DNA from: Escherichia virus TH22
Direction: 5' to 3' (one strand)
Length of the DNA: 64,000 bases
Sequence record: MT446396.1
Below are positions 1-59,785 of the stretch, one piece after another. Position 1 is the first letter of the stretch, and the number at the start of each line of letters is the position of its first letter. Below the pieces are notes generated by a model. The model had not been told where the DNA came from. It ran no database searches and saw nothing but the letters and a program-made list of their open reading frames with translations. The position numbers and the translations under genes are program-made.

Positions 1-10
1 AATCTTAAAT

Positions 11-26
11 GGGGGCGAAAGCCCCC
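11..26 (+). other. GC-rich stem-loop GGGGGC-GAAA-GCCCCC (GNRA tetraloop) just upstream of the first ORF; no U-run
   Basis: Perfect 6-bp inverted repeat with GAAA loop read directly; followed by GAGGA Shine-Dalgarno and ATG at 41. Confidence 0.4.
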
Positions 27-40
27 TTGAGGAAAATACT

Positions 41-331
41 ATGTTTATGACTACTTACTTTGATACACGTAAAAATTTCTGTGAAGTTGTTTTCTCTAAA
101 AAAGGCCCTAATGTTCCTGCTGGGTGTGAACCAACACGTGATTCCATTAAGAACTATGTTGATGTAGTTTGCCCACTAGAATTCCGGACTGTTAATGGAC
201 GCGATACTCTGGCAATCACTAAGCTTAGTCGTGACATTAATATTGACCCAACCGTGGCGCGCGAAATTAATTCATCTGATATTAATGGCGGTAATGTTAA
301 ATCACACGGTTTCCAGATGAGGTTCCAATGA
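41..331 (+). CDS. hypothetical early protein (96 aa)
   Basis: ATG-initiated ORF with upstream GAGGA; stop overlaps the next start (ATGA); no recognisable motif. Confidence 0.4.
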   Translation: MFMTTYFDTRKNFCEVVFSKKGPNVPAGCEPTRDSIKNYVDVVCPLEFRTVNGRDTLAITKLSRDINIDPTVAREINSSDINGGNVKSHGFQMRFQ

Positions 332-522
332 AATTATTCTTATCACAAACTGTTCAGTTAAAAGGTGTGGGTATTCCTGGAATGATTTCAAAGGTCCTGC
401 CTACGTTTAAATTAGGCAATACCCAAATTAAAGAAGCATATGCAGTCTTGTGGGTTGATGGAACTGAAGACGTTCGCATGGGTGGTGAGTTGTCTGTAAT
501 CAAATGCTTAAAGCGAGGATAA
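328..522 (+). CDS. hypothetical early protein (64 aa)
   Basis: ORF coupled by ATGA overlap to the upstream ORF; same strand as the ligase operon. Confidence 0.35.
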   Translation: MKLFLSQTVQLKGVGIPGMISKVLPTFKLGNTQIKEAYAVLWVDGTEDVRMGGELSVIKCLKRG

Positions 523-523
523 T

Positions 524-736
524 ATGTTTAAGAAACTGATTCAGAAAATTTTGGGAACGGAAATGGTTGAAGTTACTTATCGCGTGACTGACGTAAGTCC
601 ATGGGCCCGAAATATTGAACCATATACTAAAACAATTAAAATGCTGAAATCTGACGGTGGATTATCTATTAAAGACCGTTTACCTGGTTATGGTCATTGG
701 GCTGATGTAGAGATTATCAGTGTCAAAAATGTCTGA
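524..736 (+). CDS. hypothetical early protein (70 aa)
   Basis: Tightly packed ORF in the early operon upstream of the ligase. Confidence 0.35.
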   Translation: MFKKLIQKILGTEMVEVTYRVTDVSPWARNIEPYTKTIKMLKSDGGLSIKDRLPGYGHWADVEIISVKNV

Positions 737-1187
737 GTTAGAAATCAGAAGCAATTTCCCATGGCCATCATGTGCATTAAGTAACTTTGCTAAATGGCCT
801 TTTGTTATGGAGGGTATCCAGTTTGGAGGTCTTGAAGGCTTCCTACAAGGGTGCAAGGTGAGAAATCATGAACAACAAAAACGTATATTTGGGATGTCCG
901 GATTGGCCGCCCAGCAAAGTGGAAGAGCTTATGCAAGAGCTGCGGACCGTGGGACGCTTTTCTGGCTTGGAATTCCCTTTTCAAGATACTCTGCAGCATG
1001 GAAAGAGCTGTATACAAATGCATATTTTGAAGCAGCGCTCCAGAACCAAGGATTCCGCAATGCGTTACAATCCACAAAAGGCAAAGTTTTAAAGCATTCG
1101 ATGGCGAGCCACCTTACTGTTCATGATACAATATTGACTGAACAAGAATTTATTGACATACTTAACCAATTGAGAGATGCATTATGA
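729..1187 (+). CDS. NADAR-domain (YbiA/DUF1768-like) protein, putative ADP-ribose N-glycosidase/hydrolase
   Basis: Motif LSNFAKWPFVMEGIQFGGLEGFLQGCKV resembles the YbiA signature FSNFAAWP...SEHYFQAQKF as recalled; internal ATG at 729 chosen over the GTG at 720 in the ORF track. Confidence 0.5.
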   Translation: MSELEIRSNFPWPSCALSNFAKWPFVMEGIQFGGLEGFLQGCKVRNHEQQKRIFGMSGLAAQQSGRAYARAADRGTLFWLGIPFSRYSAAWKELYTNAYFEAALQNQGFRNALQSTKGKVLKHSMASHLTVHDTILTEQEFIDILNQLRDAL

Positions 1188-2008
1188 AACCCGTTATTTT
1201 AACAGATATTGATGGCGTATGTTTGTCATGGCAGTCTGGCTTGCCTTATTTCGCTCAAAAATATAATTTACCCCTGGAACACATCCTTAAGATGATTCAG
1301 GATGAAAAATTTGTGACCCCTGGTAAACTTTTCAATTGTGATGAAGAGTTAGGCGCGCAGTTAATTGAAAAATATAACTGTTCAGACTTTATTCGCTATT
1401 TGTCTCCTTATGCGGATGCATTAAGGGTTATCAATAACCTCAAAGAGCAATATGATTTTGTGGCTGTTACAGCCCTGGGTGATTCTATTGATGCTCGCCT
1501 GAATCGTCAATTCAACCTGAATGCTTTGTTCCCTGGGGCATTTAAAGAAGTGATGATGTGCGGCCATACAGCTTCTAAAGAAGATTTGTTTCAGAAAGCG
1601 AAGACCAAATATAATGTCGTTTGTTATATTGATGACCTTGCCCACCATTGCGACCATGCGAGTGAAATTCTCGAGGTTCCGGTTTATTGGATGGCACGCG
1701 GCGAACGTGATGCTATTCCTAAAACAGCTTCCAAAGTTTTTAATTGGGACGATGTTGCTGGACAGCTTAAACTGAAACACAAAGATGAACCGGTCAAACC
1801 AGAATTCACTCCAGATGAACTCCGTAAACTGGAAGAGCTGTTTCGTGAAACTCGACGCCTTCAACAACAAATGCAGCAAGGCTGGCAGCCTGGTCAACCG
1901 TGGACTCCTGGGTATAATCCAGCATATCCATATCAATATGGTCAGCGTGTAGGTACTGGTATTGAATACTGGTACAATCAACCGACCGGTGGCCAAGGGG
2001 GTAATTGA
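1184..2008 (+). CDS. HAD-superfamily phosphatase, 5'(3')-deoxyribonucleotidase-like, with Q/P/Y/G-rich low-complexity C-terminal tail
   Basis: N-terminal LTDIDGV (HAD motif I DxDG) and later IDDL; C-terminal 50 aa is QQQMQQGWQPGQPWTPGYNPAYPYQYG...GGQGGN; ATGA overlap with upstream ORF. Confidence 0.5.
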   Translation: MKPVILTDIDGVCLSWQSGLPYFAQKYNLPLEHILKMIQDEKFVTPGKLFNCDEELGAQLIEKYNCSDFIRYLSPYADALRVINNLKEQYDFVAVTALGDSIDARLNRQFNLNALFPGAFKEVMMCGHTASKEDLFQKAKTKYNVVCYIDDLAHHCDHASEILEVPVYWMARGERDAIPKTASKVFNWDDVAGQLKLKHKDEPVKPEFTPDELRKLEELFRETRRLQQQMQQGWQPGQPWTPGYNPAYPYQYGQRVGTGIEYWYNQPTGGQGGN

Positions 2009-2286
2009 TGTTTGTCGTTCATACTATTTCTGACCGTGGTCCAACTACCACGATGGATTACGGTCATGTTAACCAGTTTATTCGTCATGTGAATTATAAT
2101 TACTCGTTTGATATTAATCCGGCTAAAGATAACCCCGTTTGGCGTGAATGCGTTGAGCAAGGATTTATCTATGTTCACTTCATGACCAAAATGAAACCAG
2201 ATGGGGCAACTAAATTTGTGTTCACTTATCATAAGCGGCTGGATTTGCTTTTGGAAGACGTGGCATATAATAGAGTCAACGACTAA
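2008..2286 (+). CDS. hypothetical early protein (92 aa)
   Basis: ORF starting at the ATG that overlaps the upstream TGA; GAGG Shine-Dalgarno of the ligase follows its stop. Confidence 0.4.
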   Translation: MFVVHTISDRGPTTTMDYGHVNQFIRHVNYNYSFDINPAKDNPVWRECVEQGFIYVHFMTKMKPDGATKFVFTYHKRLDLLLEDVAYNRVND

Positions 2287-2296
2287 GAGGTGATTA

Positions 2297-3829
2297 ATGA
2301 TTTTAGATATTTTAAATGAAATTGCTGCAACTGATTCTACGAAAGAGAAACAAGCTATCTTGGAATCGTATTCTGATAATGAAACCCTTAAACGTGTGTA
2401 TCGTTTGACATATTCCAAAGGCATCCAGTTCTATATCAAGAAATGGCCAAACGCTGGGTTAACTACCCAAAGCTTTGGCATGCTGAATATCGATGATATG
2501 CTTGACTTTATCGAATTCACATTAGCCGCGCGCAAATTAACAGGTAATGCTGCAATCGAGGAATTATCTGGCTATATTGCAGATGGTAAAAAAGATGATG
2601 TTGAAGTCTTGCGCCGCGTGATGATGCGTGACCTGGAATGTGGTGTGTCTGTATCAATTGCGAATAAGGTTTGGAAAGGTTTAATTCCTGAACAACCACA
2701 GATGCTCGCTTCTTCTTATGATGAAGCCGGTATTGCTAAGAACATTAAGTTCCCGGCATTTGCACAATTGAAAGCCGATGGTGCTCGGTGTTTTGCAGAA
2801 GTTCGTGGCGATGAGTTGGATGATGTTCGATTGCTATCCCGAGCTGGTAACGAATACCTTAAGCTTGACCTCCTTAAAAAGGAATTGATTGAAGCTACCC
2901 GTGAAGCGCGCGAGAGACATCCTGAGGGCGTTTTAATTGATGGCGAGTTAGTATACCATGAGCAGAAAGTAGCTCCCCAGAATGACGGTTTGGGCTTCCT
3001 TTTTGACGATTCAGATGAGATTGCTCCTGCAAAAGAATTTGCAGAATCAAGAACCTTTTCAAATGGCATGGCAAACAAATCATTAAAAGGAACTATTTCT
3101 GCGGCAGAAGCTTCTTGTATGAAATTCCAGGTTTGGGATTATGTTCCACTGATTGAAGTCTATTCTGATGTTAAGATTCTCAATCCACTGAAATATGATG
3201 TGCGTTTTGCTGTTCTGGAAAAGATGATTGCAGATAATGTGGTATTGCATGGTTTTGACCGCATGATTCTGATTGAAAACCATGTTGTTAACAATCTCGA
3301 TGAAGCGAAAGTTATCTATAAGAAATATGTAGATGAAGGTCTTGAAGGTATTATCCTTAAGAACATGGCATCGATTTGGGAAAACAAGCGCTCAAAGAAC
3401 CTGTATAAGTTCAAAGAAGTAATTGACATTGCAATGGAAATCATTGGATATTACGAGCACGATAAAGACCCGAATAAGATTGGCGGTGTGGTGCTTCGTT
3501 CTTCTTGTGGTAAGATTACAAATAACTGTGGTTCTGGTTTTAAAGACACAACTCAAGTCAAAGATAAGAAAACCAAAAAATGGGTTACTATTCCGATTGA
3601 GGAGCGTCATGAAATGGACCGTGAAGCCTTGATGGTTAAAGCACGTAAAGGTGAATTGGTTGGAATGATTGCCGACTGTGAATGCAATGGTTGGTTGACT
3701 TCCGAGACTCGTAAAGATAATACGGTTGCATTGTTCCTGCCGATTATTAAAGGGTTCCGTTTCGATAAAGACCATGCAGACACATTCGAAGATGTATTTG
3801 GCGACTGGTCAAAGACCGGGTTAAAATAA
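2297..3829 (+). CDS. 30: ATP-dependent DNA ligase
   Basis: 510 aa; N-terminus MILDILNEIAATDSTKEKQAILE and long colinear stretches (e.g. FAQLKADGARCFAEVRGDELDDVRLLSRAGNEY) match T4 gp30 as recalled. Confidence 0.95.
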   Translation: MILDILNEIAATDSTKEKQAILESYSDNETLKRVYRLTYSKGIQFYIKKWPNAGLTTQSFGMLNIDDMLDFIEFTLAARKLTGNAAIEELSGYIADGKKDDVEVLRRVMMRDLECGVSVSIANKVWKGLIPEQPQMLASSYDEAGIAKNIKFPAFAQLKADGARCFAEVRGDELDDVRLLSRAGNEYLKLDLLKKELIEATREARERHPEGVLIDGELVYHEQKVAPQNDGLGFLFDDSDEIAPAKEFAESRTFSNGMANKSLKGTISAAEASCMKFQVWDYVPLIEVYSDVKILNPLKYDVRFAVLEKMIADNVVLHGFDRMILIENHVVNNLDEAKVIYKKYVDEGLEGIILKNMASIWENKRSKNLYKFKEVIDIAMEIIGYYEHDKDPNKIGGVVLRSSCGKITNNCGSGFKDTTQVKDKKTKKWVTIPIEERHEMDREALMVKARKGELVGMIADCECNGWLTSETRKDNTVALFLPIIKGFRFDKDHADTFEDVFGDWSKTGLK

Positions 3830-3834
3830 CAAAA

Positions 3835-3852
3835 GGGCTTCGGCCCTTTTTT
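3835..3852 (+). terminator. rho-independent terminator GGGCC-UUCG-GGCCC + U6 after the ligase
   Basis: Hairpin plus T6 run read directly. Confidence 0.8.
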
Positions 3853-3854
3853 AG

Positions 3855-3862
3855 TATAAATA
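3855..3862 (+). promoter_or_regulatory. T4-type late promoter TATAAATA upstream of alt
   Basis: Exact TATAAATA about 25 nt upstream of the alt ATG. Confidence 0.6.
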
Positions 3863-3887
3863 CATCATATTTTATAAGGAACCTATT

Positions 3888-5948
3888 ATGTCTGAACAAT
3901 TAAATGAACTCTTTGACAAATATATCGAAGCCTTCGGTTATCCTGTCATTAATATGAATCCAAAATACAAGGTCCCACAGGTTTGGCAATTTGGTGTTCC
4001 TGGGACCAATTCTCTTATGGCTCGTTTGATGCAATTCACGGGCAAAGAAACAGTTAAACAATATAAACGCGGCGATGCAATTGCCGAGGTATTCCTGTTA
4101 TCCGGAACTTCACACGGTCATGCTGTTCCTCTGAAGGGTGGTTTAGGTGAAAAACCTCTTGATGCAATTAACTTGATTTTTACTACAGTCTGGGAAAGCA
4201 TTAAACTAGGCAAACCTGATGTAGTCTTGTTCCGTTTCCCATCCAAAAAGATGAAAGGACAAGACCAAGCTATTATTCGTATTATGAATCGACTGATTCA
4301 AATGAAAACCAGCGGACGTTATCATGTTCTTCCGAATGCTTCTGGCCTTGGTAAAAAGAACGCTTATGTAATTATGTACAAAAGGGGTGTTGACCTGCTT
4401 TCAGTCGATGGTATGCCACCAGTCCCTGAGAAATATAAAAAAGTCGAAACTAAAGTTGGTGATGTATTCACCAATAAAGATAATGGTGCACAAGTATCCA
4501 AACAAGAAATTGCAGCCGAGATTCTGATTGACGCAGCAAACAAAAAGACCGATGCTGCTGTTGCCCAGAAAACTAAAATCAGTCGCCGAGCTATTGCACA
4601 AGCCCAGTACGCTCCAAGTGATTCCGTGCCAGAAGGTTGGGACGAAATCGATGCAGAAGCTGCTAAGTTTAGTCGACCGGCTACGGCAGAACTTATCGAT
4701 GATTATGAAGAACTGGAAATTTTTGTTCGACCTTCCGAAACGAATACTATGGCTCGTATGCGCGCAGCAGATACGGCTATGCGAGCAAATGGTGTTTGGA
4801 AAGAAGAAATTCGTGTTGAAGACTCTGACCCAATTTTTAACCGTATGCATCGCGAACTTAAACGTGCTCCAGTTGGTAGTATGAAGCAGATGCAGATTTT
4901 TGCCGAATCATGCGCAGAGATTCTTAACCTTCGCAAAGCCGCATTTATCGAAAGAAAAATGAATGATGCTCCTCCTAATGTGGATGCAGCCACTTATGCA
5001 GCCTCGCTCTGGGAAAAAGAATACACAAGCGCCATTCGTGTTGCAGTTAAAGACTTTGCTGAAGAAGCATCAGAAAATACTCTTAATTTCACAGCAGGGT
5101 ATACTGACAACCGTTTCCATTATGGTCAGCGAGAAGCAATTGCAGATTATTGTGGAGCAAACTATGCCGATATTAATAATTATTTGATGGGCAAATATTA
5201 TGAAGAAGAAGCTGAATTCCTAAATCTAGACAGAGTTGTCGAAACAATTAAGGAATTGGATTCGGCCTTTGAAATTGGACATAAGTTGCCACCTAATACA
5301 ACTCTTTGGCGTGGTCAATATTTAAACGTTCCTACATTTGATAAAATTAAGAAATCTAAATTATTTTATTTCAGGAACTATGTATCAACGTCGTTTAAAC
5401 CGATTATCTTTGGTGGCTGGGTGGCGAACGTTGCTATGGCTGCAGTTCATCAGGACTATCGTGATGGGACATCTTTCCAGGCTGATGACGAAATTGTTTT
5501 ACCAGATATGCCGGAAGCACGCCGCGACCACGTAATGATGCATGTTGGTTGGAAAATTTCTGGGGCGGACTTAATTAACGTAATTGTTCCTGGGGAATTG
5601 TCAGGCAACCCATCCGAGCAGGAAGTTATTCTTCCTCGTGGGACTGTAGTTAAGATTACCAAAATTACTGATGCTTCGTATCAAGGAAACGCGAACGTCA
5701 AAATGCTGGAAGCTGATATCCAGACTACGGACCAACTGGATGAAAATGCAGTTATCTATGATGGTGATGTGTTGATGGAAACTGGTGAGCTTGTCGTTTA
5801 TCAGGGCGAGGAAACAGAAGAGCCAGTAGAATCTGTTGACTTTGCATCGTTTGCATCCTCTGGGGTAACGAAGAAAGTCAATCAAGGTCTTGGTATTCTT
5901 GCTAGTTGTATTAATTTGGAAGCTATTCCTCCTAAATTCCTTTCGTAA
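3888..5948 (+). CDS. alt: Alt-like ADP-ribosyltransferase (capsid-packaged, injected)
   Basis: 686 aa (T4 Alt about 682 aa); position between ligase and gene 54 as in T4; C-terminal R-S-E motifs (LWRGQ, YVSTSF, EQEVILPRG). Confidence 0.85.
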   Translation: MSEQLNELFDKYIEAFGYPVINMNPKYKVPQVWQFGVPGTNSLMARLMQFTGKETVKQYKRGDAIAEVFLLSGTSHGHAVPLKGGLGEKPLDAINLIFTTVWESIKLGKPDVVLFRFPSKKMKGQDQAIIRIMNRLIQMKTSGRYHVLPNASGLGKKNAYVIMYKRGVDLLSVDGMPPVPEKYKKVETKVGDVFTNKDNGAQVSKQEIAAEILIDAANKKTDAAVAQKTKISRRAIAQAQYAPSDSVPEGWDEIDAEAAKFSRPATAELIDDYEELEIFVRPSETNTMARMRAADTAMRANGVWKEEIRVEDSDPIFNRMHRELKRAPVGSMKQMQIFAESCAEILNLRKAAFIERKMNDAPPNVDAATYAASLWEKEYTSAIRVAVKDFAEEASENTLNFTAGYTDNRFHYGQREAIADYCGANYADINNYLMGKYYEEEAEFLNLDRVVETIKELDSAFEIGHKLPPNTTLWRGQYLNVPTFDKIKKSKLFYFRNYVSTSFKPIIFGGWVANVAMAAVHQDYRDGTSFQADDEIVLPDMPEARRDHVMMHVGWKISGADLINVIVPGELSGNPSEQEVILPRGTVVKITKITDASYQGNANVKMLEADIQTTDQLDENAVIYDGDVLMETGELVVYQGEETEEPVESVDFASFASSGVTKKVNQGLGILASCINLEAIPPKFLS

Positions 5949-5951
5949 GGG

Positions 5952-5981
5952 GTTTACAAGCACAAGGAAGTGCGATACAAT
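5952..5981 (+). promoter_or_regulatory. early promoter (GTTTAC-18 nt-TACAAT)
   Basis: -35 GTTTAC and -10 TACAAT with 18-nt spacer, then GAGGA and ATG at 6013. Confidence 0.55.
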
Positions 5982-6012
5982 GTTCATATCAATTGTACAT
6001 GAGGAAAACAAA

Positions 6013-6303
6013 ATGAAATCATCTTTTCGCTTTAACGGTCAGGAACTGGTAGTTGAGAATGTTATCCCGGCTTCAGAAGAGTTTGACAGCGCAGTGGGTA
6101 ATGAATTACGCCGTGTATTTGGTGAAGATAAGAAGTTTGACCTTCGCCCTGTTGAGAACTTTGTAAATTCTGAACAAACAGAAAATATTTTTAATGGTGT
6201 AGTAACTGGTCAGCTTGAATCTGAAGCGCCAATTGCAATTACAGTCTTTGCTAAGAAAGAAGCTGTAATGACTGCAGCAGGTTTCATTTCATTCCGCAAA
6301 TAA
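6013..6303 (+). CDS. hypothetical early protein (96 aa) between alt and gene 54
   Basis: ATG with GAGGA Shine-Dalgarno and own promoter; the ORF-track start at 5890 would overlap alt and lacks an RBS. Confidence 0.45.
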   Translation: MKSSFRFNGQELVVENVIPASEEFDSAVGNELRRVFGEDKKFDLRPVENFVNSEQTENIFNGVVTGQLESEAPIAITVFAKKEAVMTAAGFISFRK

Positions 6304-6332
6304 AAAAGGGACCTTCGGGTCCCTTTCTTTTT
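6302..6332. terminator. bidirectional terminator AAAAAA-GGGACC-UUCG-GGUCCC-UUUCUUUUU
   Basis: Hairpin flanked by A-run and T-run; sits between convergent genes. Confidence 0.8.
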
Positions 6333-7290
6333 ATAATATACGTTGACTTCCACCAGAGACTGTTCTCCCAGAACCAGTGAACGTATTGTATAGACTTGTT
6401 AATCCAGATTGGGCACCAGACAAGCGGCTCAATTTGGCAACTTCTGCGTTCAAGTTGTTATCTGAACTAATACCAGATACACCCTTAATAACCTTATCTT
6501 CTAACCATTCCAATGCAGCAGCTCTTCCCACCGCACCAGTTGACATAACGCGATAAGCAAAAGTCACATCAAATGTAGCTATCTGATTATCCCCTTCATA
6601 ACTCAATTCAGGCGCTGATACACTTACAGGAACACAACCAGTTAACATAACAACCGTATGCGGCAATCCATTACGTGAGTGAAGGTTAACCTGAATATCA
6701 GCTTCAACGTCTTCAGGCAAGGCCCTTAGCTGGGTAACCGGGTCTTGCACAGAGTTAACCCAATCGTTAAATGCTCTGTAGTTCCCTGCCTCTGAATCCA
6801 TTCTAAAGCTCAATACCAATGGAGAATATTCTCTTCCTGTTATCTTAATATTTGGTGCGTTATGGTTGAGGTCCATTTCGTAGTTCAACGTGTTATCCGG
6901 AAGCTTAACAGAGTGGACCAATAGACCAGCCGTTGGATATGCCATATTAAAGAAATCAAGCAGGTAAGTACCAACCTCAAATTCCCCCAATAATGATTGC
7001 ACAACACGGTTACTCATTGCCCCGATAAGATATTTGCTTATCCCTGATTTGCGAATAAGCTTTTGTGTCCCAGCAGTAACAAGAGTTGTTATCCCTTGAG
7101 TTAAGTCGCCTTGCGTTAAACCAAACCAATCTGAGTTAACAGGAAGGTTGCTGAATAATGCGCCACCAAACTGGTCCAGAAGATTCTGAGATTTGGAGGA
7201 AGGCGTGGTCGCGAAGACCACACTAAAAAGGTTATTCCTTTGTAAGTCGATATTAATCGCCTGCGTTTGGAATTCTTGTAAAGTAAACAT
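6331..7290 (-). CDS. 54: baseplate tail-tube initiator
   Basis: 319 aa (T4 gp54 about 320 aa); position and order 54-48-29 as in T4. Confidence 0.8.
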   Translation of the reverse strand: MFTLQEFQTQAINIDLQRNNLFSVVFATTPSSKSQNLLDQFGGALFSNLPVNSDWFGLTQGDLTQGITTLVTAGTQKLIRKSGISKYLIGAMSNRVVQSLLGEFEVGTYLLDFFNMAYPTAGLLVHSVKLPDNTLNYEMDLNHNAPNIKITGREYSPLVLSFRMDSEAGNYRAFNDWVNSVQDPVTQLRALPEDVEADIQVNLHSRNGLPHTVVMLTGCVPVSVSAPELSYEGDNQIATFDVTFAYRVMSTGAVGRAAALEWLEDKVIKGVSGISSDNNLNAEVAKLSRLSGAQSGLTSLYNTFTGSGRTVSGGSQRIL

Positions 7291-56039: not shown

Positions 56040-56729
<690 letters not shown>

Positions 56730-56730
<1 letters not shown>

Positions 56731-59501: not shown

Positions 59502-59575
59502 GGCCCTGTAGCTGGACGGTCAAGCGAGCGACTCATAATCGCTGGATGGTGGTTCGATTCCACCCAGGGCCACCA
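59502..59575 (+). tRNA. tRNA with CAT anticodon (Met, or Ile if lysidine-modified)
   Basis: Hand-folded cloverleaf: acceptor GGCCCTG/CAGGGCC, anticodon stem AGCGA/TCGCT with loop CTCATAA, T-arm GGTGG-TTCGATT-CCACC, encoded CCA. Confidence 0.75.
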
Positions 59576-59709: not shown

Positions 59710-59785
59710 CGAGGCATAGCTCAGAAGGAAGAGCAAGGACCTTCTAAGTCCTAGGTCGTAGGTTCGATTCCTACTGTCTCGACCA
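59710..59785 (+). tRNA. tRNA-Arg (anticodon TCT)
   Basis: Hand-folded cloverleaf: acceptor CGAGGCA/TGTCTCG (one G-U), D-stem GCTC/GAGC, anticodon stem AGGAC/GTCCT with loop CTTCTAA, T-arm GTAGG-TTCGATT-CCTAC, encoded CCA. Confidence 0.8.

Follow-up and report, generated by a model that had tools for sequence, protein, structure and literature searches.

What does a small protein with a NADAR signature do in a T4-like phage, in the neighbourhood of a gene for an ADP-ribosyltransferase? We have followed this question in a window of 64,000 nucleotides (nt) of DNA from Escherichia virus TH22 (MT446396.1), a T4-like Gaprivervirus. The window begins inside the 30.6-30 gene cluster and all positions given below refer to it. 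A preliminary description had read the open reading frame (ORF) at 729-1187 as a NADAR-like gene, in one early operon with the genes for a HAD phosphatase, DNA ligase and the ADP-ribosyltransferase Alt. It had suggested two possible uses for such a gene, self-protection or counter-defence against ADP-ribosylating host systems. Our analyses indicate that the ORF is very probably a functional Gaprivervirus ortholog of T4 30.3, also known as adfN, and by analogy with T4 its product would act against the host system DarTG1.

The gp30.3 ortholog and the NADAR superfamily

We take the ORF to start at ATG 729 and not at GTG 720, because its N-terminus, MSELEIRSNF, is then the same as that of T4 gp30.3 and the annotation of Escherichia phage UPEC07 (MW250787) agrees. 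The resulting protein aligns with T4 gp30.3 over all 152 residues without gaps, at 84% identity, and matches the Pfam family Phage_30_3 (PF08010) with E=1.1e-62 (210 bits, where the cutoff is 36, covering profile positions 2-138 of 138). Both UPEC07 and Escherichia phage TH55 are 100% identical to bases 1-6400 of the window; in GenBank the identical UPEC07 gene is labelled 'hypothetical protein'.

The motifs quoted in the preliminary description are present, with LSNF at residues 17-20 and GLEGFLQGCKV at residues 34-44, and the family profile and the fold agree with the NADAR signature that they were taken for. The second motif holds E36 and K43, which align to the corresponding Glu and Lys of E. 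coli YbiA and correspond to the catalytic pair of other NADARs (E43/K50 in PnNADAR, E88/K95 in E. coli C7). The motif is kept on alignment with homologs: across 49 of these (35-88% identity) E36 never varies and K43 is conserved at 90% or more. H123 does not vary in this set either and directly follows strand 120-122 of the model.

The AlphaFold2 model of the window protein (48 homologs) has a predicted local distance difference test score (pLDDT) of 94, a predicted template modelling score of 0.88 and a YbiA-like fold. The gp30.3 family profile reaches YbiA itself (2b3w) weakly (E=0.013), with the SNF and E..Q..K motifs in register. Searched with phmmer, the PDB sequences gave no match to the window protein, and gp30.3, gp30.2 and Alt have no model in NCBIfam. 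We conclude that the ORF is a real NADAR, far beyond chance. It is placed in the superfamily by its fold and catalytic residues, not by a direct match to the Pfam NADAR model (PF08719), and its placement in the gp30.3/AdfN family holds for every feature examined. The identity, fold, motif conservation and gene layout were all obtained here.

Could the protein be a metabolic enzyme like YbiA, an N-glycosidase that acts on intermediates of the riboflavin pathway or on another small ribosyl compound, and not on DNA? We give this reading almost no probability. Phage gp30.3 NADARs form a subfamily with a His-for-Glu/Asp signature in the last strand (Schuller 2023, PMC11543638, and PMC11125620, both of which credit de Souza and Aravind), so that His replaces the Glu that defines YbiA. 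The closest relatives of the subfamily are the DarT1-associated NADARs, and for the T4 ortholog both action on DNA itself and a DarTG1 phenotype have been shown. YbiA also differs from the window gene in its LexA-controlled operon context.

A second comparison is with DarG1, the DarT1-associated NADAR antitoxin (BC4488 family; G. lovleyi 8bat, E. coli C7 NADAR; PMC11543638). DarG1 has an Asp where the phage protein has His123, and it has a basic N-terminal extension and a toxin-antitoxin operon, whereas the window NADAR has neither the extension nor a toxin partner. The window NADAR is predicted to work like the DarG1 antitoxin; T4 AdfN cannot replace DarG1 in uninfected cells.

Counter-defence against DarTG1

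The function of T4 gp30.3 has been described by Johannesman et al. (Nat Commun 2025, PMC11825919), who named it AdfN, for anti-DarT factor NADAR. It is a guanine-ADP-ribose DNA glycohydrolase that T4 and T2 require to escape DarTG1 and that is sufficient for this escape. T4 and T2 cannot plaque on DarTG1 cells once adfN is deleted, and expression of adfN rescues RB69, whose own allele has lost its last 15 residues to a frameshift and is non-functional. The substitutions E36A and K43A and a C-terminal truncation each impair T4 AdfN, and DNA modified by DarT1 loses ADP-ribose when treated with the purified protein. A phage NADAR was also found to hydrolyse guanosine-linked, not thymidine-linked, ADP-ribose on DNA in vitro (Cihlova 2024, PMC11125620). 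The proposed counter-defence against DarT-type host systems has thus been demonstrated for the 84%-identical T4 protein (PMC11825919, PMC11125620).

The window protein shares with T4 AdfN its length, the residues E36, K43 and H123, the C-terminal helix and the place of its gene between 30.4 and 30.2. Because these residues and the helix are kept, we read the ORF as a functional ortholog; the enzymatic activity and the DarTG1 phenotype are carried over from the published T4 experiments. In this scheme, a small single-domain NADAR enzyme would be made from the tightly packed 30.6-30 run and, as in T4, would hydrolyse the N-glycosidic bond that joins ADP-ribose to guanine N2 in phage DNA. E36 and K43 would hold ADP-ribose by its ribose and phosphate, H123 would stand in for the third catalytic acid of other NADARs, and the C-terminal helix would be needed for full activity. 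With the replication-blocking DarT1 marks removed, the phage could then multiply in E. coli that carries DarTG1.

A transposon screen of T4, made independently, points the same way (bioRxiv 10.1101/2025.11.20.689424): 30.3/adfN is dispensable on K-12 and lost on DarTG1 hosts. The reference library on E. coli K-12 tolerates insertions at 27 of the 28 sites in 30.3, so the gene is not needed against the phage's own enzymes under those conditions. In the condition table presumed to be that of DarTG1, the only condition table in which 30.3 is depleted, 30.3 insertions drop about 150-fold (log2 fold change -7.25, adjusted p 0), and insertions in 30.2 (-0.12, p 0.61), alt (-0.01, p 0.97) and 30.1 (-0.01) are neutral. 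Mild depletion is seen for 30.4 (log2 fold change -1.79, adjusted p 0.014). The last 8 nt of 30.4 are also the first 8 nt of 30.3, so that polarity or translational coupling is the likely cause, although gp30.4 may have a role of its own.

Several points weigh against reading the window gene as a functional adfN. The window protein does not match PF08719 at E<=0.1; of the expected NADAR profile match, what stood is the PF08010 assignment and the individual PF08719 matches of 18 of the 49 relatives (best E 1.5e-7). The transposon table was taken as the DarTG1 condition from the order of the sheets and from the 30.3 phenotype. The phages named in the published test are T2, T4, T6, RB69 and Bas35-47, apparently with no Gaprivervirus allele among them. 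T4 is a Tequatrovirus, 25 of the 152 residues differ from T4 AdfN, and the window allele is known from sequence alone. Finally, T4 AdfN reaches full activity in T-even infections only (PMC11825919), so its activity may depend on a partner.

It is also conceivable that the allele has decayed, as in RB69, and is kept by synteny only. Natural inactive alleles are known, the RB69 frameshift being one, and the database contains truncated and fused members of the gp30.3 family (P0013-P0019). Unlike the RB69 allele, the window ORF is full length and has its conserved catalytic residues and C-terminal helix in place, and we regard decay as extremely unlikely.

Two further observations concern the 30.3 gene itself. 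Loci L011-L014 were considered as RB69-like truncations, as tblastn matched residues 1-144 only, and were rejected: their translations are full length, at 152 residues, and the short matches are an alignment-end artefact. An overlapping +1-frame ORF lies inside 30.3 (868-1092, + strand) and is the equivalent of the annotated T4 30.3'. This 76-codon frame is open in 14 of the 15 close relatives examined (61 codons in locus L009), and its start codon is not strictly conserved.

The neighbours gp30.2 and Alt

Does the company that the NADAR gene keeps tell us anything about its function? We counted the neighbours within 4 kb in 80 viral-contig loci that encode a gp30.3-type NADAR. These include alt in 14 loci, ligase in 19 and gp30.2 in 20, the other 60 having no gp30.2, and none of the three is found at the roughly 58 more distant NADAR loci (36-42% identity). 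The counts rule out NADAR-HAD or NADAR-Alt adjacency as a conserved module. We envisage that gp30.2, ligase and Alt would be syntenic neighbours from a T4-like ancestor and not one ADP-ribosylation module.

Members of the gp30.3 type also occur in quite different surroundings. One of these (P0118, locus L083; 36% identity, gene 6001-6468) lies on a 466-kb metagenomic contig, possibly a jumbo phage, in an unrelated neighbourhood. The genes of the contig are small, mostly unannotated and phage-like in appearance. A NUDIX hydrolase and a Thg1-like gene lie about 3-4 kb from the NADAR gene; alt, gp30.2 and ligase are missing from its surroundings, and its annotated neighbours include no ADP-ribosyltransferase family. 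A chromosomal homolog (P0043) comes from Methylocystis bryophila.

The target of Alt is arginine on proteins. The alt product of the window matches phrog_802 (E=1.7e-224) and PF03496 (E=1.3e-19) and is homologous to T4 Alt over its full length, in the same place after ligase, differing from it in having only 35% identity. R475, S500-T-S502 and E577-Q-E579 align with T4 Alt, and the protein is a genuine R-S-ExE ADP-ribosyltransferase.

One rival reading is a pairing of writer and eraser, in which the NADAR would reverse ADP-ribosylation by Alt, ModA and ModB, either on proteins or on off-target guanine of phage nucleic acid. The genes alt and 30.3 lie within 3 kb of each other on one strand, and Alt, as an R-S-ExE (ARTC-type) enzyme, belongs to the broad class that also includes pierisin and ScARP, transferases specific for guanine in DNA (PMC11543638). 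However, the reported NADAR activity is on guanine-ADP-ribose DNA only, and we found no report of NADAR activity on arginine-linked ADP-ribose in the literature covered, which includes PMC11543638. The transposon data argue against self-protection as well, as T4 30.3 is dispensable without DarTG1 and insertions in alt or 30.2 have no effect in the presumed DarTG1 table.

The control of alt is a further difficulty for such a pairing. The 58-nt spacer between ligase and alt holds a hairpin and a late-promoter box (Table 1). The late-promoter consensus occurs 22 times in the window, where 4.9 matches would be expected, and the alt box is the sole one in the first 12 kb. In the T4 record, Alt is an RNA polymerase ADP-ribosyltransferase, a capsid-packaged mono-ADP-ribosyltransferase that is injected, and a late promoter of its own for alt fits this. 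The genes from 30.6 to 30, in contrast, overlap or nearly abut (junction gaps of -4, +1, -8, -4, -1 and +10 nt, with the annotated 30.1 ATG at 2008), which is consistent with a single transcription unit. The suggested operon would cover 30.6-30, including the ligase, and not alt, which sits behind the hairpin with its own promoter.

The history of alt differs from that of 30.3 too. The allele here has 35% identity to T4 Alt, against 66-84% for the flanking genes, and among close relatives alt identity varies between 33 and 98% where that of 30.3 is steady at 86-96%. For example, alt is 97-98% identical in loci L003-L005 and only 33-35% identical in L006-L009 and L024, though 30.3 there is at 86-92%. 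The pattern points to replacement of the alt allele or to mosaicism there, and since alt identity jumps while 30.3 stays steady, the two are not co-evolving. Given the late promoter, the protein arginine chemistry and the low linkage count, the proximity to alt that the preliminary description stressed does not appear meaningful, and self-protection against Alt, ModA and ModB is highly improbable.

The other neighbour, gp30.2, is 66% identical to its T4 counterpart. Across 39 homologs D8, D10, K132, D150 and D151 never change and T96 is conserved at 90% or more, which accounts for all four HAD motifs (DxD, T/S, K and DD). The model (pLDDT 87, with a core above 90) has a Rossmannoid HAD fold with a cap. 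In a Foldseek search with it, the top match among 103 PDB matches at E<=1e-3 is the 5'(3')-deoxyribonucleotidase 2jao (E=1.4e-8), and the 50 matches listed all belong to the HAD superfamily or are enzymes derived from its members by engineering. A PDB profile search with gp30.2 returned the same deoxyribonucleotidase at E=0.13, which is not significant; the fold match agrees with this weak sequence-profile match. Pfam and NCBIfam gave no match for gp30.2, thus no curated HAD sequence model, PHROG gave only weak matches to PNK and heptose-phosphatase families, and a literature search on gp30.2 found nothing. At the level of motif and predicted fold, the name HAD phosphatase given in the preliminary description is justified.

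The 5'(3')-deoxyribonucleotidases (cdN/mdN) are the closest fold to gp30.2, with a Rossmannoid HAD core, an inserted helical cap and the DxD/T/K/DD residues. They share only 15-17% identity with gp30.2, which adds a C-terminal helix and a disordered tail. The HAD core spans residues 1 to about 200 and is followed by a C-terminal extension (residues ~200-274, positions 1784-2008), made up of a predicted helix (residues 210-233) and, after it, a disordered tail rich in Q, P, G and Y. The tail ends in G-I-E-Y-x-x-x-(Q/R)-P-T, a motif common to T4 and several 50%-identical homologs and absent from the short (~200-residue) gp30.2 forms of other T4-like phages. It could serve as a docking peptide.

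A further rival reading makes gp30.2 the T-even-specific partner that AdfN would need, for example as an enzyme that processes the released ADP-ribose or a phosphorylated intermediate in a second step. Cooperation of this kind would account for the full activity that T4 AdfN shows in T-even infections only. Genes 30.3 and 30.2 share the 4 nt ATGA and are adjacent in all close Tevenvirinae loci and in a few at 42-45% identity, and every HAD catalytic motif is kept in gp30.2. Against this, purified AdfN alone removes the modification from DNA in vitro, three quarters of the NADAR loci have no gp30.2 within reach, and in the presumed DarTG1 table 30.2 insertions are neutral where 30.3 insertions collapse. 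We therefore think a two-step partnership very unlikely. The same low standing goes to a second, DarT-independent role of AdfN in T-even phages, which might be redundant or condition-specific and consist in erasing guanine ADP-ribosylation by Alt, ModA or ModB, or in acting with the co-translated gp30.2.

Gene layout and significance of the allele

The features discussed above are collected in Table 1. The order on the + strand is that of T4 (30.6, 30.5, 30.4, 30.3, 30.2, 30.1, 30, alt, alt.-3), and genes 54 and 48 follow downstream of the alt.-3 homolog on the opposite, converging strand.

Table 1. Features of the 30.6 to alt.-3 region and their positions in the window
Feature	Position	Strand	Basis or remark
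gp30.6, gp30.5, gp30.4 homologs	41-331, 328-522, 524-736	+	PHROG matches, T4 synteny
gp30.3/AdfN ortholog, phage-type NADAR, predicted guanine-ADP-ribose DNA glycohydrolase, 152 residues	729-1187	+	
E36 and K43 catalytic codons, within GLEGFLQGCKV	834-836, 855-857	+	positions of T4 AdfN E36/K43 mutated in PMC11825919
H123 codon, His replacing last-strand Glu/Asp in gp30.3-type NADARs	1095-1097	+	
C-terminal helix, residues 138-151, intact	1140-1181	+	model helix H138-151
gp30.2, predicted HAD-superfamily hydrolase	1184-2008	+	homology, motifs, fold
gp30.1 homolog (DUF3045)	2008-2286	+	PF11243 E=9e-18, synteny with T4 30.1
gp30, ATP-dependent DNA ligase, 510 residues	2297-3829	+	PF01068 E=2e-28, phrog_114 E=1.6e-155
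GC-rich palindromic hairpin then T run, terminator-like, ligase-alt interval	3831-3850		
T4 late-promoter consensus TATAAATA	3855-3862	+	26 nt upstream of alt ATG
alt, Alt-like R-S-ExE mono-ADP-ribosyltransferase, 686 residues	3888-5948	+	profiles and motifs
alt.-3 homolog (DUF5498)	6013-6303	+	PF17602 E=1.9e-33
9-bp GC-rich hairpin with flanking A and T runs, separating the alt.-3 homolog from the convergent gene 54	6305-6326		terminator scan

The hairpin beyond the alt.-3 homolog looks like a bidirectional terminator. The small T4 genes alt.1, alt.-1 and alt.-2 are absent here (intervals 3829-3888 and 5948-6013); the alt promoter region is directly 3' of ligase and the alt.-3 homolog is directly 3' of alt. 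Elsewhere in the window there is a second known counter-defence gene, the anti-CBASS nuclease Acb1 (T4 57B; 56275-56730, + strand; PF23474 E=1.2e-59). The only tRNA genes found in the window are tRNA-Met(CAT) at 59502-59575 and tRNA-Arg(TCT) at 59710-59785, both on the + strand.

The gene and its function are already known, and the sole increment of this work is an intact allele in a Gaprivervirus that is labelled 'hypothetical' in GenBank. Its significance beyond annotation is small: the need of AdfN for a T-even context and the role of gp30.2 have both been posed in the literature already, and the window gives no special leverage on either. In practical terms, the gene could be renamed adfN, or anti-DarTG1 NADAR. 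We predict that this Gaprivervirus would resist DarTG1-carrying E. coli, which bears on the prediction of host range for therapeutic T4-like phages.

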